Shown here: piece by piece, positions 31,200 through 64,000 of the stretch
How the letters are laid out: each line of letters starts with the position of its first letter
Position numbering within the stretch: the stretch's first letter is position 1
From: Haliotis cracherodii
Lineage: Eukaryota
Assembly (NCBI RefSeq): GCF_022045235.1
Contig: NW_027266297.1
Location: 26,102,001 to 26,166,000 of the forward strand
Length of the DNA stretch: 64,000 bases
Direction of reading: 5' to 3'
The notes under the pieces: model-generated
Told to the model about the DNA's origin: nothing
Seen by the model: only the letters and a program-made list of their open reading frames with translations
The model's database searches: none
Made by a program: the position numbers and the translations under genes

Positions 31200-32996
31200 C
31201 CGTGTATATTGTATTGATACTGGCACTAACATACAAAATGGTACATACATTTTAGAAATATTCCAACCATATGACGGAGGCCTGGGTATAATTGAGTCTG
31301 AACCCGACAACGCAGTGATTGATTTTGTGAACAACGATCCACGCCGTCCGGGTAGGATGACAAGTCAGCAATCCTGACCAACCGATCCACTTTCGACCAG
31401 CATAGGTTGCTGGAGACCTATTCTCATCCAGATTAGAAACCTCTTACGTGGATTCATGAAAGGAGCAAGGGGCGGTTGGGTAGCCTAATGGTTAAAGCGT
31501 TTTCTCGTCACATCAAAGACCCGGGTTCGATTCCCGAAAAGGGTACTATGTGTGAAGCCCATGTCTGGTGCCCCCCGGGTGATATTGCTGGTATATTGCT
31601 AAAAGCGGCATAAACTCAAACTCACTCACGAAAGGAACACCTGCGTCTTCGTTCCTGTCACGAGAAACACCTGTTGCACGTGCGAAATTGACTACTCCCT
31701 CGTCGAGCCCACCACTGAATTGGGACCACACCAATATTTGTTTTTGCTCGACATATTTTCTCAATTTATTCTGACATACTTGTCCGTAATTTGACCGTAT
31801 CTAAATTTACAACCTATTAGACTCAACTAAATATATTGTTACCCAAAGATTCTGAGATAGATAACCACTCCCCCTCGGTTAAGGGGATGTAAAACCCGAG
31901 GCGAATTGGAACAGGTGATGCTTGACCGAGAGCGCGAAGAGCCGGAGGCTCTTCATTGCCGATACACAAACACCGAGGAGTCGTGTTTTATCCTACACAT
32001 CCACACGGGCCAATTGTGAGAAGAAAGTGTACACACTCAACACAACTTTTACACTTTGTCGGATGCTCAAGTTGGCAGTGTAACAGTGGGATGGGTTCGG
32101 AGATTTGGCGTTATTTGTTTTAGCCTATGGCCTTCTGCAACACTATGACCCTTCTCGACTGCCTGACCACTTGGTTTTAATTCCAGCCCTCCTTACAAAG
32201 AGTAACCCTGAACCCCGTCTTTGTTTTCAAAAAGTGAGGTAATTGTATAATTTGGTCACGAGCCTTCCAAATATTTGTTATGTATTTTCCGACGCTCCTA
32301 AGTGATCAAGACTTAGGTGTCTCGTGATTCTCTCCAATTTCGTTGAGTGCAACGACGTCATTCAGTTGGAATATTGCTGCGCGTGCCGTTAAAAAACACA
32401 AAACATATATGCAAGCGTTATGTTTACATTCACGAAAGAGAAATGGAAACGCATTAATACGCCCGAAAACAAGGAACTAAGTCTGTGGGTAAAAGGATCG
32501 TAGGCTATCTTAAGTTTGTTGTATCAAGTATATAGACATCGCAAAAACATTATTGTGAACTATGTTTTTAATCTACCAAACTCTCTAAGCGCCAAAAGAG
32601 ATATGGTGAGTCAGCGTGTGTTTTAACGCCACTTTTAACAGTAATTCACTTATATCACGGCGTGTCAGCTTGCTGTGGGAGGAAAGCCTGAAGTGATACC
32701 GAAAATCCTAGACGTTTGGTACTTAATTGTAACCCGCGGGTATGGTGTTGATAACCATATGAACACAACGGTTGAATCGGGATTCGAACACACGGTCATG
32801 GGTTACTAGCACACATAAGGAACGCAACCCTGACCGCCGAATTACGGCGCTTTAGTCACGATGTCACTTTAAGGAAGTATATCTGAAAGAGTATGCATGA
32901 ACTATGGACTGTTACGTAAAAGCATATAGATCGAAAGTAAATGCGGAATTATGTTGATAAAAAGGTTTAGCTATATAGTTAAACGAAGTCATACAT

Positions 32997-34435
32997 TTAC
33001 TTTAAGAACACTGCCATCATACACGCCAGGAGCGTGGCAAGTGGCAAAGACAACAGCGGCGCCTCACATGTAGTCGGGCTGGGTGGAGGTGTTGGAGGAG
33101 ATGGGTTGAACTGGGGACATTTATTGTCCATCATACATTCCCACAACTTCACCCCTGTGTGTTTACCTGAACGGGAAGCGCCTTCGAGAAAACCATCCAT
33201 CACGTCGTCGTAAGCCTCTCCAGCAAAGTAGACTCTTCCAACACGTGACTTCAGAGCCTCCATGAACCTTGGGTTGCCATCGTCTCCAACCTGGCGGGAG
33301 GTGAAGCTTCCCAGAGTATAAGGATTTCCCGTCCACCCCGCCACAAAGACCCGTTCTGGCTCTGGTGTTTCCTGTCCATACATGCCCTTGAGAACTGCCG
33401 TCACCTCGGCTTTCACTGTAGCATTACGCTCTCTGTCCACCCTCCGTGCTTCCTCTCCTGTGACGACAAACAGGAGTATGTTCGTGCCGGTGGGGAAGAA
33501 GCCCATGGCCTCCAGGTTGATGATGATCGGGTAGTATCCTCTTCGTGGGTGGGCGTGGAGGATGTATTGCTCAGACCCCCAAAAGTTGGTCACTGTGCTG
33601 GCAAATTTAACATAGATCTGAGTGTACGCGTTCATATTTGTTTTGTAGATGGTGTCTAACTTCCATGCGGGTAGAGGCGGGTTAAACATGTCGTTATTAC
33701 TCTTGAGGACGCCCATGCTGAAGGTGACTATGGCATACTTGCCCATGAAGGTTGTGCCTCCCGTGGTAGACACAGACACCGAGGTGTCGGTGTGGTTGAT
33801 GCTGTCCACAGATTCGAACAACTTTATTTGTGGTCCTGACGTGTTCATGAAAGAGCTGGCAAATCGTTCCATCACGTCCTGTAGCCCTCGCTGATCCGTT
33901 GACAGGAACATTTTGTCCTGGATGTCGGAGACGGACTGAAATCCTCGAGTTGACATGAGGGCTGGCACCTTGCTAAATTCGAAATCGTAATCATATATCT
34001 CTATAACGTCTTCCAAGGGGGTTCTAGGAAACCACTGCCCGTTCTCTAATGCAACTCTCATAGACATGTCGGCTATCTTGCCCTCTTTGATTTCACGGTA
34101 GAGATTCTTCACAATTTTCTGAGCGTTTTGTAATTTAGTCCAGGCTGCCTCCGCCTGCGTGTCCAGCGCCTGCCCTTGATGCGACTTCACGACGACGCTT
34201 TCGTAGTCAACGTACTTGCCTGTGATGTTGTAGTTGCTGACGGTGTTGTTAATGGATGCTTCGGGGCCATGTAAGCCCATGGATCCAACCTCCACCATTT
34301 TCCCGCCAAACATGACGCTCCAAGCTCTCCCGCCAATCCGCCAATTGCCCTCTATGATGATAAAGGATATGTTGTGTTTGGCTAGAACACTCGCTGCGGA
34401 CAATCCAGCATATCCGGCGCCGAGAATCAGAACAT
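32997..34435 (-). CDS. Flavin-containing polyamine oxidase (plant/fungal PAO-type), main exon; C-terminal Pro-rich linker and hydrophobic tail
   Basis: DVLILGAGYAGLSAA (Rossmann GxGxxG), RIGGR, YDYDFEF, DQRG, YAIVTFSMGVL, FNPPLPAWK, RRGYY, RVYFAGEA and GFLEGA resemble maize PAO-type enzymes. Acceptor tttcag precedes 34435 (phase 1), so the first 16 aa of the track ORF are intronic. Confidence 0.9.
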
Positions 34436-34996
34436 CTGAAACATAATACACACCATAAATTTTCAAAAATATTTTATATTTCATACCATCACCCGACCAA
34501 CCGTTGTCTAGTCCTGCATGGCATATGTTTGTATCATCGTAAATATTGTCGACACCTCTGAAATATCAAAGTCTATAAGACTAAAACCTCACATGGATAA
34601 TTTCGAAAGATATCTTTCATCCATGTTCAAAATGTCATTGGTGTCCATTGGTTAGGATCATAGGGTGTATTTTGTGGATATTTTCAACGCTTTCGCCTTG
34701 TGAAGCGTACAATCTAGTGAAGCTAACTTTTTAGAACTATCATCTGAAACGATGGGTTTATGATGCTAATATGTAGGAATGATCCCAGCAAATGGGTTTT
34801 TAATTATTTTTTTTAAAACTGACATAAAAATCCTTGCATATTTCAACATGACAAACATCTGAGTCATCATTCATTTGCACAATAATTCCTCTCCCATTTT
34901 AAGTTTAGGATTTGTGGTAATATATGCAATTTTTAAAACATATTTGGATAAGTTCGACCCAAGTCTTGCCTAACATAATGCGGTCAATCAATTATA

Positions 34997-36541
34997 AACT
35001 GACGTCCAAAAGAAACTTTACTAACTGAAAATATAAATTTCAGACAAAGTATAAATTTTTTTTCGAAAAAGTCTATCTAAAACACATAGCCTAAATACAA
35101 CAATAGTGTATGCAGAAAATGTTAATCGTCTGTTACATGTTTGCGAGATAACATGCGAAAAAGTGAAAAACACGTGCACCACGGACAACTGCAAATGCAC
35201 GTGCGGGTAAGGATATAAAACGATTGCAACGGCAAGTCAGACATCCACAGTGATAAAAAAAAACACCCAAAAGAAATGCCACGACTCACAGTCGAACATA
35301 GTGAACGAGCCTTGGGTATGGTACAGATGGGAGCCACCCACGTCCATATTGCACGAACCTTCGGTTGCTCCCGCGTTGCTGTTACCAACTTGATGCAACG
35401 TTACAGACAGACAGGGCGGACCGCTCTCAGGCCATGAACAGGCAGACCCAGGGTAACCACGCCCCATGATGACCGGTACTTGCGTACCTTGCATCTTCGA
35501 AATCGCTTCCTGACAGTGACGTCATCGGCGATAAATGCCTTAGGTCACAGGGTTAGTCGACAGACAGTGGCCAGGAGACTCAGGGCTCATGGAATCAGGG
35601 CTTTTAGACCATACAGAGGACAGCTATTGAAAGCGCAACATCGTCGTCTGCGATTGTAATGGGCCCATACTGTACGACGTTGGCAACGACGTGACTGGCA
35701 GAGGGTTGTCTTCACTGACGAAAGTCGATTCTGTACGTTTAGGGCTGATGGAAGACAACGTCTTTACCGCAGAAGGGGTGAACGAACGGCGGCGTCTTGC
35801 GTGCAGGAGGTCGTACCATATGGTGGAGGGAGCGTCATGGTGTGGGGAGGGATCTGTGGGCAGGAGAGGACACCGCTGGTCATCGTTGACGGAAACTTGA
35901 CAGTTCAGCGTTACATGAATAACATTCTTTGTCCAGTTGTCCTACCATTTCTCCAACAGCAGCCACGTTGTGTCATTTATCAGCATGACAACGCTAGAGC
36001 CCATACAGCCAGAACTGTCTCTAACTTCCTCGCAGCCAACAACGTCAAAGTCCTACCGTGGCCTGCACGCTCTACCGACATGTCCCTCATAGAACACCTC
36101 TGGGACTTGATGGATCGTCGTGTTCGACAACGACCACACTCTCCAGCCAACCAGCAAGAACTGATCTTGGCCCTCCAAGAAGAATGGCGTCAAATCCCAC
36201 GTGACCTCATCAGACAACTGACTTTTTCTGTGCGTCGAAGAGTTTTTGCGTGTATTGAGGCATTTGGGGGTCACACACGCTACTAATGACTTGTTATTGA
36301 ACATGTGCGATTGTTTATGTTCTCTGTCTATTGTCCATGATTCTGAAAGCTCGAGTTTTGTACCACACCAAACTTTGGGGGGCTCTAATGTCGTTCTCGG
36401 TCGCGGTATGATTGTCATTTTCAGTGTTGATTATGTTGATATATTGATCTTCTCAATACACTTACTTCATGCATGTATGTTTTGTTGTTTTTGAGCAAGA
36501 GTGATTTCAAACTCTGGTAAAGTTTCTTTTGGACGTCAGTT
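34997..36541 (+). mobile_element. Tc1/mariner DNA transposon, full length, DD34E transposase inactivated
   Basis: TIRs AACTGACGTCCAAAAGAAACTTTAC / GTAAAGTTTCTTTTGGACGTCAGTT with TA on both sides (34995-6, 36542-3). Confidence 0.95.
35276..36286 (+). pseudogene. Tc1 transposase pseudogene (337 codons, two in-frame stops)
   Basis: MPRL...TGRPRVTT...FTDESRF...VMVWGGI...QHDNARAH...WPARSTDMSLIE; 34 residues between the second D and E. Confidence 0.93.
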
Positions 36542-36698
36542 TATGTGAATCCCCTATAGTGAGTGAGTGAGTTGGGTTTAACACCATTTTCGATTTTCAA
36601 GGCCAAGCTAACCCTTTTTTACTTTTAAAAGTTGCTTGGTTGAATTGGTCATGTCAGAAAACATATTATTAGACACTAAAATCATGACTATTGGACAA

Positions 36699-36810
36699 TG
36701 TTAACTGTGTTTGTGAATTTCACCGACTGCCCAAAGTGCGTTGACCTTTCAACGTTTTTGGTCATAGCTCCCCCATTTAAGGTCGGAAGAATAACAAACT
36801 ATATATTTCT
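36699..36810. repeat. Dispersed repeat fragment; inverted copy at about 60629-60735
   Basis: TGTTAACTGTGTTTGTGAATTTCACCGACTGCC...TAGCTCCCCCATTTAA is the reverse complement of 60650-60735. Confidence 0.8.
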
Positions 36811-38037
36811 AGGTTTCTTATGACTGGACGAGTAATTTGATATGCATATCGACACAATTTTGAATTTTGACCCCGGGATTTTCAATGGATACAACATCCA
36901 ATTCTCTCGGAAAAATGGTGGAACCTTGAAACCAAGCACCTCTGCTACATACCAACCACTCATAGACATGACTCCATCACACCCTGATACCATGATGACT
37001 TCCTTAGTTGAGGCTCAGCGTCTGACTCAAATGACAGGTCAAGAGTACACCGTATTCACCTGTGATCAACAACTTTACAGAGTTGCCCTTCATGTGATGT
37101 GGGTGTATCCAGATAGATTCTCCAATGTTTTTCTACAGCTGGTAGGTATGCACCTACTGATGAACTTCGTAGGATCAGTAGGATCACTCATGGCAAATAG
37201 TGGTCTGGAAGAGGTAATGGGAAATGTGTTTGCTGGTGTGCCAAAGAGGCTGTCAGGCAAGAAATTTCCACAGAACGTCAGAGCTCTTCGTATAGTGGTA
37301 GAGGAAATTTTGAGAAGTGTGCTTGCACCTGGCAGTATCAGCAGTGGCAATCAACTTCAGCTTAAACTGCAAACTCTCTCTTCAGTAAGCAAGACAACAA
37401 AGCTGTGGGTTGACGTTCTCATCAAGCCTGTTTTCATTATGATGATGTATGTGAGGGCAGAGAGGGGAGGTGACTGGTCGTTGCACCTTGAAGCAGTTAA
37501 ACAAATGATGCCGTACTTCCATCTTAGGTCCACTGAAGCAATGCCCATCAAAATCCAAGAACACTTTCTTGCGGGTGAGCATGTAATGAGACACATACCT
37601 GGGTACTGGAACGGTATCTGGAGTGACATGTGGATCGAAACAACATTTATGAGATAAGGTCATGGGCTCGGGGGAAGAATGGGAGTTACCCTGAGGCCTG
37701 ACATGCTAAAGACATGGGCATTAAGCCTCCACATTTGCACACAATTAGAGGAAGATGTGTTAAAGATCAGTCAACGCAATGTGGACAGGATAAACACAAA
37801 GCAGAAAACAAATCAAGAATAGACTCGGATGCCAAGGACAGGGAGAACATTCGGCAGCAGCTTCAACTTTTCATTGATCCAATGAAGCCAGAAACTCATC
37901 CTGAAGATCTTGTGAACATCGTTTCCAGCAGGGTTTCTTCGTCTGCAGTTAACGTTCACAACGCAGTATCTATTGGAATAAAGCAGATGGAAAGCTTTGA
38001 AAGTGGGTGGCCAAACAGCTTTCATGAAACAATTCCA

Positions 38038-38608
38038 ACAAGCATGAAATACTCACATCCCCCGCCAATATGACATGTCAGGTGTGTGCAATGCATTAGC
38101 TCCTGTGAACTATGTTCACTGGGCCTTTTTGTAAAGAAACATAGTACGTTTTTCAAGATCTGCTCCGGAAACGAGGACTACCGCCATTTTCAGTCTAAAT
38201 CAAAGTCGTTGCCATGGAAACTCGAAAAATATATTTTTTGTAAATCCCAAACCATCAAAAGGCACCAGTTCACCACTAGACCTATCTATGTGCCAAGTAT
38301 GGTGAAGAAATATGGTACAGTTTTCAAGATCTGCTCCAGAAATGAGGACTACAGACATTTTCAGTCTAAATCAAAGTCGTTGCAATGGAAACTCGAAAAA
38401 AAATTTTTTTTTAAATCCCAAACCATCAAAAGGCACCGGTTCACCACTAGACCTATCTATGTGCCAAGTTTGGTGAAGAAATATGGTACGGTTTTCAAGA
38501 TCTGCTCCGGAAACGAAATGTGACGGACGGAAGGACGGCCGGACGGAAGGAAGGACGGCCGGACGGCACCCATTCCTATATCCTCCTTCCACTTCGTGGC
38601 GGGGGATA
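38038..38608 (-). mobile_element. Helentron-associated (HINE/DINE-1-like) non-autonomous element with internal 171-bp tandem repeats
   Basis: Sub-terminal IRs ATCCCCCGCC / GGCGGGGGAT, (GTCC)-like microsatellite, about 2.3 copies of a 171-bp unit, inserted in an A-run without TSD. Removal rejoins Academ ETIP|KKIVTM. Confidence 0.7.
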
Positions 38609-39478
38609 AAAAAGATAGTTACAATGGATACAGCAAAGAAGCATATCAATATTGGATCAATTAAAGTTTTCGACACAAGTTTGATCTACTCTCCTGTTAT
38701 TGGTCTGCAGGCCAGCACTCGTGATGTTGACATTAAGCATGTATTTTCTCATGGATTGGCACCAGTTCCTACTTCCATGTTCGGCGATGCTGGAGAAATG
38801 AGAGTTTGCAAGGCAAAGTCCACGATGACACGTATTTTACAAGTACCGGTATCTTCTCGTCAAACACATAATCAGACAACAGCCTTGATTATTGATGGAT
38901 CAGCATTGCTGTGGGTCATTCGCTTGCCAGAATGGGGAACAGTCCTAGATTATTTGCTAGGTTTCAAAGCTAACATCATATCAAAATTGAAAGTTGGAGA
39001 TGTGTTCTTGGTATTTGACCGCTACAAGGAGTACAGCACTAAGGATGTCACAAGGCAGGGAAGAACAACAAATGCCAGCAGTAGAGTTCATCACATGAAG
39101 GTGTCAACAATCTTACCTCCCCAGAAGTCAAAGTAAACAAACATGCGTTGATAAACTTGATTTCCCATGACCTCCTTAATGATGATGATCTGCTTCATGT
39201 TCACACCAAAGAACACAAACTTGTCATTACAGGGGAGAATAATGTCCCACATGGGCGCCACCTAGCGGTGTGTAGTGCAGCAGCAGAGAAATGTCGCTCT
39301 GAGAAAAAAATGAAATAACGTCACAACCAATCTACCACCAAAGGTAACATTTTGAGAAGTTCCTCATATCAACAACGTCTAGAAGATGATCTGTGAAAAT
39401 GCAGATTATACAGCCAGAATCGGCTGTTTTCACTCAATCTTTATCAACTTCATGTTCTAAAGAGCTAGACGAGCAGCC

Positions 39479-40271
39479 ATGAGACCGCACGTGCTGCGCG
39501 TGCCGAAGAACACCAGGTTACTTCTGCGTCTCTGTTTGTTTGTGTCTGTGTTGACGTTGACACTTAGCAACGATGTTGAGCCCAACCAAGGCCCGCCAAA
39601 AACCCGCCAACTGACGATTGAGGGAGAGTTTTCTGCTTCTGAAGTCCTAAAAGAACTGAAAGAAATGCGCCAGGAAATAAATGGGAACTTTGATAAACTT
39701 AATCGAAAAATTGAATCTGTTGAAAGGGATATGCAATTGGTGATGGAGGAAAACAAAGAACTGAAAGACACTGTGAATAATCTATCAAATAAAGTGGAAT
39801 ATCTGGAGGGACTTAGCAAAAGAGATAATCTGATATTCCATAATATTGAAGAATCTAATGGCGAAACCACAAGCGAAATCGAAAATAAACTTAAAGAAGT
39901 TATCACCAAAATGGAACTGAGACCCACAGACTTTGTATATGATGACATCAGACGACTTCCTACCAAATCACTGGGACCCAGACCTGTAACTGAAAGGATC
40001 GCAGTTTGGTATCTCTCAGGATTTTCCAGAAAAAGTACGACAAACCCGACGTAAGTTGAAAACGTTTCTAGATAAAGCAAGAGATGAAATGAAGTATCCA
40101 GTACTGAGATATGATAAGATTCAAATTGATAACAAACTGTACAGATTTGATCACATAAATGAAAACCTAATACACATAAAGACATTGTCACCAGTCACTA
40201 GGAGTGGTATAAACAAGGCAGCAGCAGTGACGGAATCAGCGGAAGCAACAGATACGAATGATGATGATTAG
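39479..40271 (+). pseudogene. LINE ORF1 with N-terminal 2A-like motif; frameshift near 40000
   Basis: LSNDVEPNQGP; heptad coiled coil; KRDNLIFHNIEE; second frame FGISQDFPEKVRQTRRKL...LRYDKIQIDNKLY. Confidence 0.8.
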
Positions 40272-41601
40272 GGGTGTGGCCAACGTCCATTATGCACAGA
40301 TATCAGCCTAAAACTGTCAGTGTGGAACTGTGAAGGTTTCAAGAGATTACTGCAAAAGAGTCTTTCTTTAGATTTTATCAATAAACATCATATAGCATGT
40401 TTCGTGGAATCCTGGTTGAATAAAGAAGACAAAGTAGACATTAATGGATATAATACATACAGCAAAACCAGAACTAAAGCAAGTGGTGCTATCAGAAACT
40501 CAGGCGGGACACTCACAAGTCATTTCATCTAACGTATGTGAATTACATGGCTGTACTAAAACAGATAATGTCCAGTGGATAAAACTTCAGTTAAACATTA
40601 CTGTGGTGATAGGCACAGTGTATTACTCTCCAGAAGGATCAACCAGCCCACACTCAAAGGAACAATTGTTTGATATTCTAGAAGAGGATATTGATACGTT
40701 TCGAAGTTCTTTTCCTAATTGTGAATTCATTCTACATGGTGACTTTAACGCCAGAACTGGGAATTTAGCAGACTATTTAGAAAATGATGATACCACCTAT
40801 TTGCCAACTGACGAAAATATAAACTATATAATGGATGAACCCACCCCAAGAATATCTCAAGACAAAAATGTAAACAAAAGGGGAAAGTCATTGTTAGACT
40901 TTTGCAAGAAAAATGAACTCCGTATCTGCAATGGTCGTTTGTTTCAAGATAAAGACATTGGGAAAATAACTTGTGTTGTGAATGAGGGCCAAAGCGTTGT
41001 AGATTATGTTTTGTGCTCAAATAACATATTTCACCAGTTTACCAGTTTCGATATTTGTAACGAAGTTGAATCCACACACTTTCCTATCACATACTCTGTC
41101 TTGTTCAAGGGATATAGATCACCTAAGTTGACCAACGATACATTATCTAAAAAGTCAAGATATGTCTGGAACGATAACAAAATGGTAAAATACACTGAAA
41201 ATTGGAATTTAATATCGGAACATTCTATCCAAGAATTAACAACAATAGCAGCATGTGGGCGTGTCGAGGAAGTTGCTGAAACATTCCACGATTTGCTACT
41301 GTCATGTTCAAAGGACTTCAAGAAATCGTCAGTATCCATAGTCAACAAGGGACATAACTGGTGGGATGCGGAATGCTACCAAGCCAGGTGTGACGCACGC
41401 CGTAAACTTCGTGCATTTCATGCAACTAACTGTACACGCGACCGCCTCACCTATATCGAAGCATGGAAATCATACAAACATTTATGTCACCTGAAATGTA
41501 CACGTGCTCTCAATATGAAAAAGGAAAAACTTCAGGAGAGCCTTCTTAATAGGGACAACAAACTATTCTGGTCAATTCTAAAGGGAAAACGACAATTCAC
41601 T

Positions 41602-42365
41602 AATATAGAATACTAAACGAGCTCCCGTGTAATACCAATTTTATGAAACGAGTGAATAGTTCTGGTATCTGACGAGCGAAAGCGAGTCAGATACCACAAC
41701 TATTCACGAGTTTCATAAAATTGGTTTTACACGAGAGCGAGTTTAGTATTTTATTTATTACTTGTCATTTATAATGTTTTTAGAATTATACTGTTGAGTG
41801 TAAATAGGCCGACACCTACACGATCCATGGCATGATCCAATTGAGTTTAACAGAATAATACTTCAAACACGTCAAAAGTTGAAACGTATGAATTTAATAT
41901 CATACAATGGTCCACCTTTAGAATTCAGGCGTTCGTCCCACAAAATTATCGTAGTGCTAAGGCTATCACAACTCACATAATTTAACTTAGACTAAAGACT
42001 CTCGTTGCGCTAGAGTACGATCGCCTTGTGGAACGGGGCCTTGCAGCTCAAAGTTTACAATGACGTCACAATACCCGATGACGTAATTTGTTGAATTTTG
42101 TTGCAAGATCCATCGGCGAGTCAAAGCAATGTGACGTCAGCCTAGCAACAAGGTTGCTGGGGTCATCGAGTGTCCATAAGCTCCTCCCAGTGATCTATCA
42201 TCTCCACACGCAATGTCGTTGAATACGCCAAGGGATGTTGAGAGCTTTCAATATTTGTTCGTGAAACGTGTTCCGAGAGTACATAAGCACGCGTTTTGGT
42301 ATTACACAATGTGTAATAAAGCTGTATGTTTATTAAACGGGTGATCTCTTCACGGGCAAGTAATA
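41602..42365. mobile_element. Non-autonomous element with a ~160-nt terminal palindrome (Crypton-like, tentative) inserted in LINE ORF2
   Basis: Removing it restores the frame ACT|AAC CCA GAT. Hairpin 41602-41759. Internal IR TTTATTACTTG / CAAGTAATAAA. TAATA at both ends. Confidence 0.65.
41928..42040. mobile_element. ~110-bp Harbinger/Tourist-like MITE, degenerate copy
   Basis: Ends GATCGCCTTGTGGAACGGGGCC; same family as 3658-3765 and 27564-27670. Confidence 0.6.
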
Positions 42366-45300
42366 AACCCAGATATTACACCTGCTGAGTGGATAAGATA
42401 TTTTGAAAGCCACTTTAATAGTATAAGCACTTCACCCGATGAACAATCCTTTATTGAAAGCATAATGGACTTTATTGACTCAATCACCGATGATTTGATA
42501 GATACAACTGTAAATACGAATGATTTAGATAGAGATATTAGTTATGATGAAATTACTGCTGCTATTTCAGGTATGAAAAAGGGCAAAGCTCCAGGATATA
42601 GAGGTATACCAATTGACTTTTTCAAAAATGCTCCATTTGCTTGCGTTAACCTATTACTGACTTTATACAATGCAGTATTGAGAACTGGCATCTATCCAAA
42701 ACAGTGGTCACTTGGTGCAATACTTCCAATTCATAAAAAAGGAAATGTTAACAATCCTAAAAATTATCGCCCCATAACTTTATTGGAAGTTTCTGGTAAA
42801 ATATTTGCTAAAGTTATATGTGAAAGACTGACCAAATTTGTTGAAACTAATGATATTCTTATCCCTGAATAAGCTGGTTTTAGACATGGATTTCAAACAC
42901 TGGACAACACCTTTGTTTTGGATACATTGATCGCTAAATACTTTGCTTTGTATAAAGGTCGATTATATTGTTGTTTTATTGACCTTAAAGCTGCATTTGA
43001 TTCAGTTAATAGAAAAAGTATGTTATATAAGATTTGGTTGTACAACATAAAAGGAAGTGTTTTTCGCCTTATTAGAAATATGTATTCCAATGTTCAGTCA
43101 TGTATTTCACTGCAGGGTGGTTTTACTGATTTTTTCAACTGCTTAAACGGTGTGAAACAGGGATGCCAACTATCTCCATTACTTTTTTCATTGTATATTA
43201 ATGATATTATAGATTTTTTGAATGTAGATGAGGACAGGTGTATAGAACTGGGTATTTGTAATATTCTTATGTTACTGTTTGCAGATGACATGGCACTCTT
43301 CGATAGTACATTAAAGGGTCTACAAAAAAGACTTGACAAACTATCTGTTTATTGTAAAAAATGGAGCCTCTGTGTTAATGTTGAGAAAACAAAAGTAGTT
43401 GTTTTTAGAAAAGGTGGTAGACTTAGGAAATATGAAAAGTTTTATCTTGACAATAGACCATTAGAAATAGTTCCTTCCTATAAATATTTAGGTGTTCAGT
43501 TCTCTAGCAGTGGTTCCTGGTATAAAACACAGAAAACTCTGTCTTTTCAAATGTCCAAGGTTTTGAATACAATGCGCTCCCAATGTAATAATTTTAGAAA
43601 TTTATCATTGCCAGTATTGCTGTATATTTTTTATGTTAAATTGTTTCCAGTGTTGATTTATGGATCTGAAATTTGGGGTTTTCATCCATCGCCAGACGCA
43701 ACCCGTGTTTATGATACTTACTTTAAGCAATTACTCTGTCTTGGTAGAAACACACCAAATGTTGTTGCTAGAGGTGAAGTTGGATATTGTTCATTAAAAG
43801 CTAAGATGTACATCAAAGTAATTAAGTATTGGCTGAGATTAATTTATCAACAAGATAATGTGATTTTACAGCAGGCATATTCTTTTCAATATAGGTTAGC
43901 TGAATTAGATAAGAGTTGTTGGGCATATAATGTTAAAATGCTTTTATTTAAGTACGGTTTTGGATTTGTTTGGAAAAATCAAAATGTTAATTGTATCACT
44001 TCCTTTTTGTCAGAGTTTGAAGAGCGTTGTAAAGAGATTGATTACCAAATGTGGTTTGAGGATTTGTCAAAATATTCTAAATTGAAAATGTACCAGTCTG
44101 TTAAGACTGTCTTTAAATTCGAAGAATACCTATCACTTGTCATTGTGCATCCTTATAGAAATGCTCTGATTAAATTTAGATGTTCAAACCATAAACTTAT
44201 GATTGAATACGGACGTACACTTGGTATAAGTGCGAATGAAAGATTCTGTCCATTGTGTATCGTACCTTGTGTCGAAAGTGAATACCATTTTTGTATGATA
44301 TGCCCATTCTATAATGATATAAGAAGTCTATTACCGAAATACTATGTACAAAACCCAACTCTTCTTAAATTCCAACAACCACAGCCATCACAAAATGCCT
44401 ACACTGTAAATGTCTTAGCGAAATATATTTTCCTGTCAATGAAAAAAAGATGTAAACAACTCAATATTCATTAATTGTCACTTTGATTGACCAATGTATA
44501 ATATTGTATGGCGCTCAATTGAATTGAAAAAAATCAATGAAATATGTATTGTATAATGGGCCGGTGGCCCCTTTACTGCAATAAACTCTCTCTCTCCATG
44601 AAGTGTTCAATGGCATCATATCCAGCAGACATGACATTGTCACAACGCAATGAGAAGCTGACAACATAATTGTCCAACAAGCAATTAAAGTAGCATCTGA
44701 TGGAATCCATCCAGTGACTGTTCTGTCAGATGATACCGACGTATTCCTCCTGCTGTTACATTTCTACTACTTACAGAATATGAAGGTACAGGTATTCATG
44801 GAGTCACCTGTTCAGGAGCGCACTATCATTGACATTGGAGCTTCTGTTTCCAAAAACGAACCTATTGTGCTAGACCTACTGGCAGCACATGCATTGAGTG
44901 GTTGTGATACAACAGCATCATGTTTTGGGGTTGGTAAAGGAAAAGTGGTCAAGGCATTAAAGGACGGTCACTCTCTCTCACTGCTTATAGATCCTACAGC
45001 AGATTTACCTAAAATCACTTTACAAGCAACTCAGTTCATTGCAGTCTGCTATGGCAAACCATACTGCACATCTATTACAGAAGCTCGCTTACAAGTTTGG
45101 GCAACCGAAACTGGAAGAGGCTGTTTCAAATTCCCAAGCTCTCAACTTTACCGCCAACAGATGAAGCATTTTTTGAAAATGTGAAGCGGGCACATCTCCA
45201 AACCAGTGTGTTGAAGGCTGCGTTACAGTCAGACCAACCTGCGATTGATCCAACCAAGTTTGGTTTCCACAAAGACATTACATCCAAGTGCCTTCTTCCA

Positions 45301-46234
45301 GTTACTGTACCTGAAAGTGGTACACTAGCACCACAATATATTTTGAAACTTGTGAAGTGCACTTGTGGCAGTGATACACCGTGTAGGACAAATCGATGTG
45401 GTTGCAGTCACGCCCAGTTACCTTGCACAGTATTCTGCTCCTGTAGCTCCAGTGTCTGCTTCAACCCACTCACTAAGCATGTTATTGATGATGAGGAAGA
45501 AACCTAAACTGATTGTATGTATGTGAAGAAAACCTTGAGCCAATATTCTCTTTTGAAAGTTCAGAATAATCAATTATCCTTAAAAGAATCCCGTGCTTGT
45601 TGACTTTTATTATGTTTCGACAAGCATTTTGCCAGTTATCTTGCTTATTTAAGAATCAAATTATGTTTTCAATGATACCAGTTAATTTAGAATACCATAT
45701 TCTAATTAGCTGAAAGCAAAATATTAGTGATATGCTCCAAAAGTAGTATCATATTCCATACTGTTAGCAGGGAAGCGATATTTTCATGTTTTGGCGGCCA
45801 TCTTGTCGGCCATCTTGAATATTTCAAAATGCCCAAAGATAACAGAGTGTCATCAGTCAGTTTCATAATCTAGAGTATATCATTAAATAATTCCAGCAAT
45901 AACAATTCTGGGTTTGGGGAAAATATTCATTTCTCTGCCGGACTAATACTACAAGCATGGGTTGCTGAAGACCTATTCTATCCCGGATCTCCACGGGTCT
46001 CCTTATTCTGGTCGAAGTGGCTTTTGAACTAGAGCTGTGTTTGCGTATAATGTCTGTCGATAGGATTCGGTTCACATCAGACGATATTATCGTTAGACGC
46101 GAGCCCCAAACCAGTTCTAGTCAATGTCCTTTGACCTCTGACCTTATTTTATTGCGCCTCTTTATTAATAGTTGATTTTTGTTGTTCATACATAATATAA
46201 TAAAACAACTAATTATTAACAACATGAATGGGGA

Positions 46235-47075
46235 TTGCAGTGTATCATATCACCCTTTACATCCAATGCGAGAGGGGTAGGTATTTTGAAATATAATAAT
46301 ATAGAAACAACTATACATAAATTTAATATTGATCATATTAATGGAAACTTTATTATAGCAGATATCAACACTGAAGGCATAAGGATGACTCTAGCTACAT
46401 TTGGCATTAAATACCACAATCTTACCTGGCTATAAATCTGACCATGTTGCTATTACTATAACTTTGTCAGATTCTTCATCCAAAGAAAGGGGTGGCGGTT
46501 ATTGGACATTCAATACCTCTTTATTGTAAAACAAGATTATATGGAAACTGAAAAAAAACATTTGTTGAAACAAAAGGGGAATATGCAGATTTGGCACTTG
46601 ATGAAAATAACTCAGGTATAGTAAGGACTCTAAATTAAAACTGTCCATCAGCGATTCTCTATTTTTGGAAACCCTCCTTATGAAAATAAGGGGAAAATCA
46701 ATTTCGTTCTCATCTTTACTGAAAAAAAATATAAAAGAGAAAACACAAAATTGGAGGGTAACATTTTAGAATTAGAAGAAACGATAAGAAATTACGTCCG
46801 ATCAGTAAGTGAGAGAAGCTTCTCTGATCTCTCAAAGTATAAAAATGAATTAGAACAAATGAAGGTAGATAGGGGAAGGCAACTAAGAAGTAGGATTCAG
46901 TGGTATGAAGACGGGGAAAACCCGTCTAAGTATTTATGTCACATGGAAAACAGAACTTACACAAATAAGACTATTAATAATTCAACAAATGCTAATGGTG
47001 AAGTCATCACTGAAGGTGACGAAATGCTGTCTGAACAGAAAGAATTTTACAAAAAACCTTTACTCAGCTAGAAGT
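46235..47075 (+). pseudogene. Degraded L1/Tx1-clade ORF2 fragment
   Basis: SNARGVGIL, SDH, YWTFNTSLL, RSRIQWYEDGENPSKY and EFYK motifs across frameshifts. Confidence 0.75.
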
Positions 47076-48296
47076 TCTGAAAGGGAACAAACTCTTGAAA
47101 TCAGACGCTGCTTTTAACAGTACTTCAAGTTATATCACGGCGTGTCAGCTTAATGTGGGAGGAAAGCCCTAAGTGATGCAGGTCTGAGACGTTTACCACT
47201 TTGGTGAAGCCCACGAGCACGGGTATGGTGCTGACAAACCTAGAAACATAATCGCTGTGAACCGGGATTCGAACCCACAATCATAGGTTTCTAATAAAGG
47301 ACTGCTGACTGACGCCCCTAGCGACATGCCACCTGTCATGCATCACAAGTCTCAACTTCATTGTAAATAGATAAGCATAAATGTCACCCAGGTAAAGTCA
47401 GTTTATTCATGTTTATCAAATGGCATTGTATTAGATTTATTGCTTATGTTGTCCAATCAGAATGTAGTTCGTACTTCTGTAAATGCATTCACTATCATGT
47501 ACGAAACTATATAACTGTACTGGTAAGAGAAAGTGGCAATCGACTCACGTGACTCGGGGGGTCACACTCTTGCTGGTCGCCTACCTCTCTCCGTGTGATA
47601 AAGACACGATTTACAGAAAGACTTAATACTTATGTATTATATATGCGATCCCCTATCGCCAGTTATACCGATATAACGAACTTGTTTTTTAGTCCCGGCC
47701 ATTTGTTGCATATATACTGTATATATGCTTATAACGAACTACGGTTATTACGAACTAAAATTAGTGGTCCCTTTGAGTTCGTCATAACCGTAGTTTACTG
47801 TCTAACGACCCCCTTGCGTCAGTCAGGTAGTGGCTCGGTCTCAACAAGAAGTAACAATTGTTGTGAGATCCAGACTTCCCCACTGAAGTACCTGCTGAAG
47901 ATAACACGAATCTCCAGAGTGATCACCAGGCCTCATGCATGAGGTAGCATGCAATGCATAGACGACAAGGTACAGACCAAAAAAAGTACAAATGTCTCCT
48001 TATCTGAAATCTGCATAACCCATGTTACAGATGTATTCTTTTCACGAAACTTAACGAAGTCACCGAACCGTGCCCGCCAGCATCACGTCGAGTTCATCAC
48101 GTTAACATCACAATGTCTGTTACACGCTTAGCTGATGATGGTTTCGCCCTGCTGTTTTCACAAGACAGAGACTGCAACGTCGTCTACAGTAGAACTAGCA
48201 TGAAACCCGTCTGCAATCATGTGTGCAAAATAGGCATTGAACATTCTGTCACATTTGTTTTAATCCAAAAAGAAAAAGATGTTCGAGAGTACTCTC

Positions 48297-48471
48297 AGTA
48301 AACTACGTTTATAACGAACACGCTTATAACGAACTTACCAATATAACGAATTTGTTTTTTAGTCCCGGCCATTTTTTGCATATATACTGTATATATGCTT
48401 ATAACGAACTACGGTTTTTACGAACTAAAATTAGTGGTCCCTTTGAGTTCGTTATAACCGTAGTTTATTGT
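48297..48471. mobile_element. pogo/Tigger-like MITE (partial second copy at about 47660-47801)
   Basis: TIR CAGTAAACTACG / CGTAGTTTA(T/C)TG; internal TATAACGAAC repeats. Confidence 0.65.
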
Positions 48472-48645
48472 ATATCACTTTAAATCGACTCGGGACTCGG
48501 GGGGCCCCCACGTTCTTGGGACCCCTGATCACACTATTGGTGGACGACTACCTCTCTTATTAAGACTTAATACTTATGTTTTATACGCGATCCCCTTATC
48601 GCGGGTTTGGAGGTGGTCGTTACTCACACGACTGCCGATGTATAA

Positions 48646-49739
48646 AGCCCCTATCTCACACAAACGATTTAAGAAATTGCGAACACGATTTAAAAAAAGT
48701 TGAAAAATCGTGTTGATTCGTGCTCGACCTTGTGTTTTATACAAATTTCTTAAACAAACACGACCCTCATACGACCAAAAACGACCCTCATACAACCCTG
48801 TACACGACACTCATACGACCGTCATAAGATATTCATACGATACAACACGATTTAACCACATTTAACACGACCCCAATACGACTGTCATACGACCAAACAC
48901 GACTGTCATACGACGCCCATACGACTTAACAAGAATCAACACGACCACCATACGATTAAACCCGGATCATTACGATGTCCATAGGACTACAAAAATAAAC
49001 ACGATCTCCATACGACTGAGCAAGACCTTCATACGACATATTTTTGTTTATTTTGTTCACGTGAGTCATGTAGTATATAAGCTGCATTGTAACATCATTT
49101 CTGTGCCAGTCTTCACCATGTTCAACAACGAACAAGACCCGCAAGAAGCAGCTTTGGGGGAGGAGGAAGTACTTCTGGTAGCTATGGCTTTGATGGTGAG
49201 GGGTAGGAGGCAGCGTAGGCGTCGCAGAGTGAGGAGCTTCCGTTTCGGCCGCCTGAGGTTTGGCATGGCTGTAGAATGAGCTTTCACTTTCAGGGGGTTT
49301 CCCACGTTCTCACTCAGTCACGTGATGAGCTCTTCCGGTCGTATGACAAACGTATGGATTTCGTGTTCAGGCGTATGGGAGTCATATGAAAGGCGTATGA
49401 AAGTCGTTTTGAATCGTGTTAAAACGTATGAAGGTCGTATGAGTTTCTTCCCACACTCCCCAACACGACAGAACGCGACTGAACACGATCTTCATACGAC
49501 TGAACACGATCTTCATACGTTTGAAAACGACTGTCATACGACCTTCATCCGACCTTCATCCGACCTTCATACGACTGAACACGACTTTTCAGCTCGGCTT
49601 AAATCGTGCGCGGCCTACCATGACTTAACACGAATGAACACGAATGAGTGTGCGGCCTTCATACCTTCTAACACGATTTAAAGAAAAACGTTAAATCGTG
49701 TTCATTCATGTTCAGATTCGTGAATGTGAGATAGGGGCA
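48646..49739 (+). mobile_element. PIF/Harbinger non-autonomous deletion derivative
   Basis: TIR GCCCCTATCTCACA / TGTGAGATAGGGGC, TAA TSD, dense ACACGA/ATACGA sub-terminal motifs, remnant transposase-like N-terminus (LLVAMALMVRGRRQRRRRR). Confidence 0.8.
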
Positions 49740-50084
49740 TAACGACCCCCTAGCGTCAATAAGATGGCGACTGTATAAGTAATAATTATACGCGAGCGAC
49801 ACACCCGTAAGTCACAATGAGTTACGTAGTGACTGTGACGCGCCAATAAGCAACAATACCCTGAAACTTTCCCTTCCGAAACATGCGCCGTGAACCATTT
49901 TGACTTTAACAAATCGAATGATGGTGACTTCACAGTTGCACAATGCAGTGGAAGTTTGAGACAGACAAGTCTATGCTTCTATGTACCTAAATAACAAAGT
50001 AATAGTGTTTCTTATTTACTAACATCACTTGCGGTTTAGGGTTTCGGAAAACATATGCCTAATGCAATACAACTATCTTCCCGA

Positions 50085-50250
50085 GTGAGTGAGTGAGTAT
50101 GGTTTTACGCCGCTTTTAGCAATATTCCAGCAATATTACAGCGGAGGACACCAGAAATGGGCTTCACACAATGTACCAATGTCGGGAATCGAACCCGGGT
50201 CTTCGGCGTGACGATCGAACGCTTTAACCACTATGCTACCCGACCGCCCC
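50085..50250 (-). mobile_element. tRNA-derived SINE family A
   Basis: Full copy; TSD TATCTTCCCGA. Confidence 0.88.
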
Positions 50251-50253
50251 AAT

Positions 50254-50461
50254 ATCTTCCCGAAGCCAGGGAGTTAACTGACACATCACCCGCATTTCCT
50301 TCAAACAATATGGCGGCGCCTAGTTAAGACGATCTGATTGATAATCAAGATCTATATTGTAATAAAACGGGTCTTACCTCGCGTAGTTCATAAAATCATT
50401 TGTTCGGCAAGGGTTGAAATTGGACTTTTATAGTCTGTTAACTCCCTTGCCTCGGGAAGAT
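50254..50461. mobile_element. ~200-bp MITE
   Basis: TIR ATCTTCCCGAAGCCAGGGAGTTAAC / GTTAACTCCCTTGCCTCGGGAAGAT. Confidence 0.65.
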
Positions 50462-51697
50462 GAATACAACTTTGAAACAGAAAGTCATTTGACTCTAGAT
50501 ATCATAATTAAAAAAATATAAGGTTTCCGGTTTAAATACATTAATTCCGGATAAGGAAACTTAACATACCACTTTGAAACATAACAACAATGAGCTGCCT
50601 ACAGACCCTGTATTTATAATGTCAAATCCAATTCTAAATGCTCAAGGTGTGTTTACATGTAGTTTGTAAGATCTACTTGCTACCGAGTGGCCTTGACCTT
50701 CATCGTCCTCCAATCACAAGCGAAAACATTTCGTGTTAGGTGTTGTATACATATGAATCCCTATACCTTACCAATAATACTTCCAGAATATAACTGTTTA
50801 CATGCCGTTTCATAAGTGAATGACCTTTTTAGTGAGTGACCTTGACATTTGACACAATAATGTCATATGATAGGTGGTGAGTTAGTTACTTAGGCTTCTT
50901 CTTAATGTCTGAAAAAAATCTCTGGGTTTTCACGAATTAATCCGAAATTTCGTGAAATTTGAATAATTCTTTTAATATTTGGACCACAAGTGTCCTTGAC
51001 CTTATATGAATGTCACCCAAAAGTTCGTGGCCCCTTCATAGAGATCATGTATACTACGTTTAGTCAAATATTTTTTAAAAATACTCAAGTTGTGATGTAC
51101 ACAAGTCTGTATGATGTCCAGCGTGTTACATAGGAGAACATTACAATCATAAATGCTTAATTTATCGAGTACACAAGTTCTAATGTCGTCGAGTTTATAT
51201 TAAATTCATACTTGTTTGATTCCGTTTGATTTTGTCTTCAATTCAAAGTTTTATAACGAAAAAAAGTAACAGTGGTTCATATAAAAAAATAAATGCATTT
51301 GAAATTAAATAATGCATATTTCAAAACATGTTCATGAAGGCATCTTCTCGACTTTAAGGTCGTGATTCACAGTTTGCATGTGCATGTTTATGCACGGAAC
51401 ACAATTTGGATGTTTGCATGTTTGTTGGGAGCATGTTACTCACAAACGTGTATTTTTTAATGCGAACAGAACACAATGTGATTTAACTATTAGGTGGTCG
51501 TAAAACATTTTTGTTTAACGGTAAATAACGCTTACGAAATGCCACGGCTTGTTGAAAATCAATGTCTACGCGCTTTGGATATGCTGCAAACAGAATGAAC
51601 GAAGTTGCCAGATATTTTTTAATGTTCATCGAAACACAGTATCATCTTTTGAAGACGTTATCTACAGCAGAGCAATGCTCATGACTTACCATGGACT

Positions 51698-52304
51698 CAA
51701 TCTCATCAAAATCAGATCTTAGTTCTCGCTTTCGCTGAACAAAGATCTGAGGACATTCCATTACGCGTCACGTCAGAACGACCTTTCATCCGACCAATCA
51801 AAGCGTCGCTTACAAGATCATGAAAGTGACAGTCGGAATGTGTTTTCTAATCATGCAACCTCGAAAACGTTAACACGGGGCATTCCGAACGACAGTTACG
51901 GCCCATACAACTGATTCCGTCAAAATTATCGTCTGTCTCTGACTTCCGTGGGATAAACGTTTAAACGGAGGAGGCGATGCACAGTACGTGGGAAGCACTG
52001 CCATACAATTTCAACCATATATCAGACATTCAGGAATGTTCGTTTGTTCAGTTTTCAAAATTTTAATCGAGAACTGTGTCAACATATTTTTCAAGCGTAG
52101 TCTGAAATGGAAGTCGCCAGGTTGAAACGAGTGCCGTAAAGCCCGAGAAAGCTGATTTCTAATTGGCTGATGTTGACTTTTTGTTAGTCATTTCAGTGGT
52201 CGGTCAAAGTTCGCGAAAGGTCGTTCTGACGTGACCCGTAATGGGATGTCCTCAGATCTTTGTTTTGCGGTAGCGAGAAGTTAGATCTGATTTTAATGAG
52301 ATTG
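51698..52304. mobile_element. Second copy of the MULE-like MITE, inserted in a Tc1 transposase
   Basis: Same TIRs as 4357-4860; degenerate 9-bp TSD CCATGGACT / CCACAGACC. Confidence 0.8.
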
Positions 52305-52551
52305 CCACAGACCGGTCGTCCACGTGTGACGTCACGTCAACAAGACAACCATATTCGGTTTTTGCATTTGCGGAATCGAAACCAAACTGCCATATTAACA
52401 GCTCAGAACCGTAGGCAACCGAGGGAGTACAACATCCGGCCCCGACTTCCAGCGATATGCCCAACTTTGATTAGCGTTTGCCTGGTTTGGTGTTAAAGAA
52501 ACAAGAATGGGACAGCATACTGTTCGCTGATGAGTTCAGGTTTCACCTGGA

Positions 52552-52688
52552 GTGAGTGAGTATTGTTTTACGCCTCTTTTAGCAATATTCCAGAAATGGG
52601 CTTCACACATTGTACCCATGTCGGAAATCGAACCCGGGTCTTCGGCGTGACAAACGAACGCTTTAACCACTAGGCTACCCGACCGCCC
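52552..52688 (-). mobile_element. tRNA-derived SINE family A inside the Tc1 remnant
   Basis: TSD TTTCACCTGGA / TTTCATCTGGA. Confidence 0.85.
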
Positions 52689-53239
52689 TTTCATCTGGAT
52701 AGCTCTGATGGTCGTGCAAGGGTCTACAGTCGTCCAGGAGAATGTTTTAGATACGCTTGCGTTACTCAGCCTCGTCAGTTAGGGGGTGCAAGTGTAATAG
52801 TATGGTGTGGCATCACAACTCATGGGAGAACACAACTCCTCATTGCTAATGACAATTTGAATGGCGTACGCAATCGGGACGACATCGTCATGATCATGTT
52901 CTACCCTTTCTTCAAACGCAGGAACGTGACGTCACGTTGCAGCAGGATAAAACCCACCCACACGTTGCACGTTTTAAAACCGACTTTTTGAGGCGGCTTA
53001 ACATTACTGTACTGTCATGGGCGGCTGTGTCTCAAGACCTCTCCCCAATAGAATGTGTCTGGGATGAGATAGATCGACGCCCACGACAGGACCAGATCGC
53101 TGTAACGCTAGCTCAGTTGGGCCAATCTTTGGTTGGCATTTGAAACAACACCCCCCGGGCTGGTTTTCTGGTGTCTGCAACGCTCCTACTCTGCCTTCGC
53201 CTATCACAACCAATATTGACGTTGTGAATAAATTGTTAC

Positions 53240-53450
53240 ACCACCCCTCTTTTAAGGCGTGTCTTTCTGTCTTCTGTTCCCAGGGATGGCTTTTGTCAAT
53301 GATTTCGTTATGATAGAACATTAATCAGCCGAATGACCAAACATTTTGATGTTATCTTAAATAACATAAAACTTACACAGCTTTATATGGAGCACAGTTA
53401 CTTTCTCCGTTAGTATATACCTAAAGTAATGTTAAGCCCAGAGTAATCCG
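53240..53450. repeat. ~210-bp direct duplication with 57530-57742
   Basis: Near-identical CCACCCCTCTTTTAAGGCGTGTC...CCAGAGTAATCCGT. Confidence 0.9.
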
Positions 53451-54553
53451 TTTTAAAAAAAAGGCCCCCGCTTTAACGGTATTTTTCCAACTGCATGCAA
53501 CCGGATGTGACGTTGACAAGCCGAGTGGACCCGAGTGAACCCGTGTGGGCCCGAGTGGTGTTCTCGTAGATAATTTGAGATACGAGAGTTGTGCCCCCCA
53601 TATAGCCACATGAGAGGAGAGAAACGGGAGTCGAACCCACAATCATAGGTTTCTGGCGTGCCCTCGGGACGCAAATATGCACAGCGAATTGTGGCGCCTT
53701 AGACAACAGGGCCACCGTGCCCTATTAGATTGAGAGAAAGAGTTGGATTTAATGAAGCACCAATTGTATCGTGGTGTGTGGGAAGAAAGTCAGGTCTCAG
53801 ATGTTTGCCACTCTGGGCGTCCACCCGGAGAGCGGAAGGTCGGTTAAAAGACGTTAATGGAGGGTGCTTGTTGTTACCCTGCCGGGAGCATCTCAGTACA
53901 CTGTAGGCGTGTTTGCGCGCGTCGAACCATGTTCTGTTTAACGTATTAAGACTAAACTGAAACCTGCATTATGTTATGTACTTAAATCCTAGAACAATTT
54001 CTTTTCTAGATACATTTCCTTATTTTACTGTTATATACTGCAATACCAATAGTATATACTGTTTTAACTATTAGGTGGTCGTAAAACATTTTTGTTTGAC
54101 GGTAAGTAACGCTTACGCAATGCCACGGCTTGTTGTCTACGCGCCTTGGATATGCTGCAAACAGGAATGAAGGCAGTTGCCAGATATTTTATTTCTAGGT
54201 GTAGGCGACGTGATTAATTATCTACACGAATAATACAATTGTTAGCATGCAAAGTGGATTTTGATTCTTTAAATTACATTTGCTCGGATTCCATCGATGC
54301 CAGAGCAATATCTCCATGTACATCGCCGAGAATCGGAGTTCGTATTCCACTGAGAAACAATTTGGCGGTTTGTGTTAATTTTACCGTTTGCATATGTACA
54401 TTTGGAAAACCCATCCCGCATCTTGATTCCAGCTTAGTGTACATGCTGCAAACATACTCATGAATAATGCCACTCTTTCCGCTCACAAACCTCATGTATT
54501 GTAACATTATGACTTTATAAATCTCAACTGCAAAAGTCAAATTGTGTTCTAAC

Positions 54554-54617
54554 CTGCATCAAACTGCGCTGACGCTCCAGACATCAAGGACGCCACCGCA
54601 CACACAAGCAACATCAT
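54554..54617 (-). CDS. Polyamine oxidase exon 1 (signal peptide MMLLVCAVASLMSGASA-QFDA)
   Basis: ATG ATG TTG CTT GTG TGT GCG ... GAT GCA G|gttaga. The phase-1 donor completes G+AT = Asp of DVLILGAG. Hydrophobic core with an A-S-A cleavage site. Joined CDS is 1503 nt / 500 aa. Confidence 0.8.
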
Positions 54618-54660
54618 CTTCAGTATTGTAAGATTCCGCTTCGACCTCCTAAATATGTTC

Positions 54661-54666
54661 TTTATA
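54661..54666 (-). promoter_or_regulatory. Candidate TATA box of the polyamine oxidase gene
   Basis: TATAAA on the - strand about 45 nt upstream of the exon-1 ATG. Confidence 0.45.
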
Positions 54667-58336: not shown

Positions 58337-58613
58337 GAGTGGGTGAGTTGGGTTTAACGCCGCTTTTAACATTATTCCAGTTACATCACAACGCGTCAGC
58401 TTGTTGTGGAAGGAAAACCCCAAGTGATGCAGGTCCCAGATGTTTACCACTTCGGTGAAACCCACGAGCACGGGTATGGTGCTGACAAACATAGAAACAT
58501 AATCGGGGCGAACCGGGATTCGAACCCACATTCATAGGTTTCTGGCGTGCCCAAGGGACGCAACTCTGCACAGCGAATCGCGGCGCCTTAGACGACTTGG
58601 CCACCCATGCCCC
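58337..58613 (-). mobile_element. tRNA-derived SINE family B
   Basis: Full copy in reverse orientation. Confidence 0.88.
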
Positions 58614-58640
58614 TATTTGTCTGAACTCTGCAGACACAAC

Positions 58641-61121: not shown

Positions 61122-61166
<45 letters not shown>

Positions 61167-61199
61167 ACACTCTCAACACTCTCTCCGATTAACTTTCTT

Positions 61200-63620: not shown

Positions 63621-64000
63621 AACACTTTACACCCACCCTTTCCTCAACTTCTCCCCGTGTCACCAACACACTTAACACCCACCCTCTCCCCGTATCCCCA
63701 ACACACTTTACACCCACCCTCTCCTCAACTTCTCCCCATGTCACCAACACACTTAACACCCACCCTCTCCCCATATCACAAACACACTTAACATCCACCC
63801 TCTCAACTTCTCCCTGTATCCCCAACACACTTTACACCCACCCTCTCCTCAACTTCTCCCCGTGTCACCAACACACTTTACACCCACCCTCTCCTCATCT
63901 TCTCCCCGGGTCACCAACACACTTAACACCCACCCTCTCCCCATATCACAAACACACTTAACATCCACCCTCTCAACTTCTCCCTGTATCCCCAACACAC
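63620..64000. repeat. Second, related C-rich minisatellite running off the window
   Basis: CCAACACACTTTACACCCACCCTCTCCTCAACTTCTCCCCGTGTCA alternating with a shorter unit. Confidence 0.9.

Follow-up and report, generated by a model that had tools for sequence, protein, structure and literature searches.

The minus strand of a 64,000-nucleotide (nt) stretch of the genome of the abalone Haliotis cracherodii (RefSeq assembly GCF_022045235.1, contig NW_027266297.1, positions 26,102,001 to 26,166,000; hereafter the window) carries a gene for a 500-residue protein which descends from the Clade I polyamine oxidases (PAOs), the group of the maize enzyme ZmPAO1, and not from the animal PAOX/SMOX enzymes. 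Since the lysine at maize position 300 (Lys300) is replaced, we class the protein as a descendant of Clade I and not as a canonical PAO enzyme. From its sequence, we propose that it may be a secreted and glycosylphosphatidylinositol (GPI)-anchored Clade I homologue which would bind flavin adenine dinucleotide (FAD) and an amine ligand and would react slowly with oxygen; taken as a whole, we regard this proposal as evenly balanced between right and wrong. The interest of the gene, whose model was already known, lies in a lineage at odds with a published loss and in the absence of the lysine, which an earlier note on this DNA did not mention.

The earlier note had judged the protein to be closer to maize PAO than to PAOX/SMOX, and this was supported by structure matches, fold and trees. 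The protein matches PF01593 in Pfam over profile positions 2-437 of 443 (E = 1.8e-43), and among solved structures it matches maize PAO (E = 1.8e-52) ahead of LSD2 (3e-19), SMOX (7e-19), PAOX (2e-15) and Fms1 (9e-10); a search of the ESM Atlas returned generic PF01593 clusters and nothing more specific. With an AlphaFold model of the 500 residues (46-row alignment; predicted local distance difference test score, pLDDT, 88.9), Foldseek placed maize PAO first, and VIA-align superposed the model on maize PAO with a Z of 47 and a root-mean-square deviation of 1.8 A over 435-439 residues, compared with a Z of about 38-40 for PAOX and LSD1. The fold is thus shared with ZmPAO1 (PDB 1b37; K300M, 3kpf, 3ku9 and 3l1r) at approximately 29% identity.

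In a quick tree of 75 rows, the 12 abalone proteins were grouped together (Shimodaira-Hasegawa-like approximate likelihood ratio test, SH-aLRT, 97) within a 56-row group (SH-aLRT 100) that contains 6 plant and 4 fungal rows and also takes in sponge, cnidarian, echinoderm, hemichordate and amphioxus rows, while 18 PAOX/SMOX rows fell apart from it. Within that group, the tree sets no order of branching among the Clade I rows of animals, plants and fungi. The same grouping was obtained (SH-aLRT 100) in a tree of 31 rows, 5 of them unnamed outgroup rows, and a single clade of the abalone and Clade II sequences was rejected (approximately unbiased, AU, test; p = 0.0006). Note that ZmPAO1 itself is represented in the trees by grass and poppy proteins bearing its six active-site residues, and that both trees are without named Clade III and IV rows. 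In the 31-row tree, the abalone rows were adjoined by Gigantopelta and the nemertean Tubulanus (support 89 and 92), a position which vertical descent fits, although such descent is not strongly supported.

The animal PAOX/SMOX enzymes (Clade II), including the SMOX-like gene of the abalone itself, share the PF01593 fold and a histidine at maize position 62 with this protein. However, they are reported to be intracellular, to have threonine at position 439 and to keep Lys300 (PMC7576179), whereas the abalone protein has Phe437 in place of that threonine and a predicted signal peptide. Animals are said to have lost Clade I and to possess Clade II PAOs only, and Lys300 is described as strictly conserved across all PAOs (PMC7576179); both statements fail on the present data. 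Molluscs and GPI go unmentioned in that paper, and its supplements list Branchiostoma under Clade II only and contain none of five other names sought. Neither molluscs nor extracellular forms are listed in the accessible part of PMC3517346, and the full-text literature searched, which leaves most subscription journals outside, held no report of an animal Clade I or GPI-anchored PAO. Automatic database names already mirror the plant-type likeness, such as 'polyamine oxidase 1-like', the name of the member from Haliotis rufescens. Named Clade I relatives were found in sponge, corals, sea anemone, nemertean, gastropods, echinoderms, hemichordates and amphioxus. The invertebrate proteins named 'polyamine oxidase 1/6/7-like' (from Haliotis, Gigantopelta, Tubulanus, Branchiostoma, Ptychodera, Glandiceps, Amphiura, Acropora, Exaiptasia and Halichondria) are of the same lineage as the abalone protein at 28-42% identity, mostly with hydrophobic N-termini and many with hydrophobic tails. 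If secreted or surface PAO-like proteins form a family widespread in invertebrates, the extracellular handling of polyamines in marine animals would become testable.

The correspondence of active-site residues was taken from the alignment with maize PAO and from alignment A1. The FAD-binding motifs are present, namely GxGxxG (G27), the acidic residue that follows strand 2 (E50), GGR (R58) and the C-terminal GE motif (E428). Maize Glu170 (E174), Tyr298 (Y292) and the aromatic sandwich 403/439 (F399/F437) are common to the two proteins, together with a C-terminal Cys pair and a signal peptide, which is predicted in the abalone protein. In contrast, Lys300 of ZmPAO1 is replaced by Gln294, Glu62 by His77 and Ala-Asn-Trp 58-60 by Ser-Met-Gly. 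A second maize sequence shows Met at the column of Gln294, and the title of that entry gives Lys300Met. Among the 12 abalone rows, Ala-Asn-Trp 58-60 is lost only in this orthologue pair; of 84 strongly conserved columns, the protein retains 72 and is changed in 12, this motif included. Over the peptide A region (maize 174-182), similarity was low and the alignment had a gap of 3 residues.

We counted the lysine in 214 relatives, with Clade II rows, P0047 and P0071-P0078 excluded. It is missing in all 12 rows labelled abalone (2 Gln, 10 Ser) and present in all 7 named plant and all 4 named fungal rows. The rows not labelled abalone mostly keep it (160 of 202), although the Gigantopelta protein does not, and one of the 42 rows without it is a further abalone protein. 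The lysine is reported in every plant PAO subfamily (PMC6341606), it is described as critical for rapid reaction with O2 in this superfamily (PMC12272882), and the rate of flavin reduction is 1400-fold lower in maize K300M (PMC3184146). Generation of H2O2, which the earlier note had suggested, is doubtful because Lys300 is replaced by Gln and the 58-60 motif is altered; the other suggestion of that note, that the protein binds polyamines at the cell surface, may still hold.

The predicted signal peptide was upheld by the hydropathy of residues 1-11 (2.6) and by the -3,-1 rule, a heuristic under which cleavage after Ala17 is most likely; the signal exon is also kept in two other abalone species (H. 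rufescens and Haliotis asinina). Six sequons and the pair Cys455/Cys461, equivalent to maize Cys457/Cys463, are consistent with a secreted protein. Beyond the domain, the AlphaFold model has a Pro/Thr stalk of low confidence and then a helix at 484-499. This stalk and the hydrophobic tail, which are additions relative to ZmPAO1, are as described earlier; such a tail is not unique to the protein, being present in 53 of the 214 relatives (7 of 12 abalone rows and 0 of 11 named plant or fungal rows). A simple GPI heuristic (an omega site with a small residue, placed 17-31 residues before the C-terminus, a hydrophobic tail and no cytosolic part) gave Cys478 as the single candidate, 22 residues from the end, with the C-E-A triplet kept in three species and a tail hydropathy of about 2.1. 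The ends of several paralogues are GPI-like in textbook fashion. GPI anchoring of the protein is likely on these features, the alternative being a tail-anchoring helix. A link between lysine loss and the hydrophobic tail was considered and rejected: the raw association over 186 non-abalone rows had a Fisher p of 0.002, but independent tree pairs gave a median p of 1.

In the proposed mechanism, entry into the secretory pathway would be directed by the signal exon, the hydrophobic tail would be exchanged for GPI by transfer at Cys478, the kept motifs would provide bound FAD and an amine-binding tunnel, and without the lysine the chemistry at flavin N5 would be slow. FAD binding and a low H2O2 output are likely, and the most likely role would be to bind or slowly turn over polyamine-like amines at the surface, not to deliver an oxidative burst.

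Several observations weigh against this proposal. In a 198-row FastTree with the lysine column omitted, 17 lysine changes were counted, at least 11 of which were forced by supported branches (most rows with changes are unnamed), and such repeated loss in intact relatives suggests that lysine-less members may work via another route of O2 activation. Trp60 is not universal in active relatives of the superfamily, as LSD2 is without it in the maize alignment. The identity with H. asinina is 72.8%, against 79.3% for the SMOX-like control; together with the 72 retained columns, this indicates that the gene is not decaying. Finally, the residues that follow Cys478 form a hydrophobic spacer (mean 1.2), which is atypical for GPI spacers and makes a tail-anchoring helix possible, whereas the spacers of the top candidates in P0367 and P0006, two paralogues, are polar (-1.3 to -2.1). 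The surface anchor suggested in the earlier note is therefore plausible by the heuristic, but its spacer is unlike that of a typical GPI signal.

One rival, the idea of the earlier note with altered chemistry, is a fully active surface amine oxidase, which would produce H2O2 from a different substrate and activate O2 without the lysine. The presence of the FAD motifs, Glu174, Tyr292 and Phe399/Phe437 favours such an enzyme, as do the many losses of the lysine among intact relatives and His77, since histidine is the residue at position 62 in most PAO clades (PMC7576179, Table 1); given the Gln at the Lys300 position and the altered 58-60 motif, we consider it rather unlikely. An amine dehydrogenase at the cell surface, with an electron acceptor other than oxygen, seems quite improbable. 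The dehydrogenase activity of AtPAO5 is described as higher than its oxidase activity (PMC7576179), and the superfamily has dehydrogenases with a lysine placement differing from that of the oxidases (PMC12272882). However, those dehydrogenases keep the lysine, the lysine of maize PAO matters for flavin reduction too (PMC3184146), and no acceptor was identified. Natural, long-lived members without the lysine offer probes of O2 activation by flavin amine oxidases.

The protein differs from that of H. rufescens at 38 of 500 residues, whereas 4 differences were counted over the 469 residues of the SMOX-like control (Fisher p = 9e-8); with H. asinina, the gap between the two is small (72.8% and 79.3% identity). 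Fifteen of the 38 differences fall inside one stretch of 40 residues, which was reached in 0 of 2000 shuffles, and two base changes are needed in 11 of the 37 differing codons of exon 2. Measured against one control gene, these differences hint at recent positive selection or gene conversion. They would suit a non-catalytic recognition protein under positive selection (for a microbe, gamete or larval cue) with the oxidase fold as scaffold, as would the finding that the subfamily of this gene is single-copy in the H. cracherodii genome. We consider this quite unlikely: the control is a single housekeeping gene, the paralogues likewise differ by 2-6% from H. rufescens, and conversion, a hidden H. 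rufescens paralogue or relaxed constraint could yield the same patch, while the FAD motifs are fully kept. A wider scenario, in which Clade I was retained from sponge to amphioxus, abalones possess a family of lysine-less surface flavoproteins, and this member is a positively selected, fast-evolving amine receptor or recognition protein, appears distinctly unlikely.

The gene model, with two coding exons, is already annotated and ordinary (Table 1). The first coding exon has 64 nt and ends in a phase-1 GT donor (CAG/GTTAGA), and the acceptor TTTCAG/AT at 34435 takes this splice. The joined frame of 1503 nt (500 amino acids and stop) gives a protein that is letter-for-letter identical to RefSeq XP_071119351.1 of H. 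cracherodii, which is named 'uncharacterized protein'. Among 339 minus-strand candidates running from ATG to a phase-1 GT in the interval 34500 to 64000, this exon was the best; a filter on donor and hydrophobicity left 3 mini-exons, 2 of which are this same exon, and the N-termini of H. rufescens and H. asinina align to the window solely at 54617-54555. The phase-1 join put forward in the earlier note is thus confirmed, whereas its description of the first exon as hidden does not hold, since RefSeq already includes the exon and the paralogues have the same layout. In fact, all four paralogue loci fetched have a signal-peptide exon with a phase-1 GT and a single-exon catalytic domain. The gene has one coding intron, while 8 are reported in plant ZmPAO1-like genes, and this intron is long because transposon remains sit inside it. 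Of 14 open reading frames (ORFs) of the window run against Pfam, 5 matched, 3 of these intronic (DDE_3 at 35660-36283, endonuclease at 40438-41613 and reverse transcriptase at 42873-44471). The last two matches lie in a broken long interspersed nuclear element (39461-44474, plus strand). The ORFs at 36836-39136 and 44654-45507, without Pfam match, resemble two parts of one DNA transposon, so that the element between them is possibly a nested insertion.

Contigs of 4 runs were aligned to the window (21 runs listed; 3 studies); none of the runs is recorded as RNA, and that they are RNA is a guess. Matching ended at 34438 in all 4 runs, and the bin 34542-34775 was uncovered. Two plus-strand contigs extend past 34438 by 215 and 87 letters which were not aligned to the window. 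If the signal exon is included in these unaligned parts (X4 and X5), 154 and 26 nt are left beyond its 61 coding letters, and for the minus-strand contigs X1 and X2 the remainder would be 66 and 124 nt, with our reading of which end is unaligned. By rule of thumb, a TATA box at the TATAAA at 54666-54661 would imply a 5' untranslated region (UTR) of about 20 nt.

The TATAAA just upstream of the first exon, previously pointed out, is indeed present, but it is unlikely to be a promoter. It directly follows a CAG, it is one of 38 TATAAA on the minus strand of the window, and the signal exons of the paralogues are judged internal because in all four loci an AG stands at their ATG or one base upstream of it. 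Acceptor-like sites are frequent (104 of 1321 AG). The TATAAA is probably part of the 5' UTR and not a TATA box.

Table 1. Features of the gene, numbered from the first letter of the window
Feature	Positions	Strand	Remarks
3' UTR	31580..32996	-	Under the same contigs; AATAAA at 31770
Second coding exon	32997..34435	-	Whole PF01593 domain, Pro/Thr stalk, hydrophobic tail and stop
Candidate GPI signal	33000..33068	-	Omega Cys478 (C-E-A), then propeptide of 22 residues, mostly hydrophobic and lacking a cytosolic tail; heuristic
Difference cluster against H. rufescens, residues 356-393	33321..33434	-	15 of the 38 differences inside one stretch of 40 residues
Gln294 at the catalytic Lys300 position	33618..33620	-	Maize alignment, A1 and column of the relatives
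Ser73-Met74-Gly75 replacing maize Ala58-Asn59-Trp60	34275..34283	-	Changed in this orthologue group; most paralogues keep the maize motif
Phase-1 intron, 20,118 nt	34436..54553	-	With transposon remains
First coding exon	54554..54617	-	Predicted signal peptide and mature N-terminus; identical to RefSeq
Probable 5' UTR of signal exon	54618..54667	-	Inferred; possible acceptor CAG at 54670-54668 before it

Besides a separate SMOX-like gene (L007, P0079), the H. cracherodii genome contains five paralogues with an identity of 38-42%. Four of the paralogues (L002-L004 and L006; G000:C34:26642448-26715227) lie about 500 kb away; three are near-identical tandem copies spaced by about 16.6 kb which end GPI-like, and the fourth copy is without the hydrophobic tail. 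All four have Ser at the Lys300 position. The fifth (L005; G000:C23:52104736-52106022), on another contig, looks soluble and is lysine-less; it shares with the tandem copies a Cys in place of maize Gly438 and a further Cys near position 404. Among the other relatives, an unnamed protein of 661 residues (P0039) has a C-terminal PF00014 domain, which we take to be a Kunitz domain, fused to the PAO domain, and two Clade I proteins of Branchiostoma lanceolatum (P0048 and P0395) are named KDM1B in databases, apparently through misannotation.

Elsewhere in the window, a broken DDE_Tnp_4 (Harbinger-like) transposase lies upstream of the gene (58503-59908, plus strand). An exon at 19654-20016 (plus strand), without Pfam match, resembles what we take to be the C-terminus of the nuclear receptor-binding protein NRBP and probably belongs to a neighbouring gene on the opposite strand. 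Long tandem repeats at 21625-22659 and 61033-63961 give rise to spurious long ORFs, and the latter has an extreme GC skew, near -0.85.

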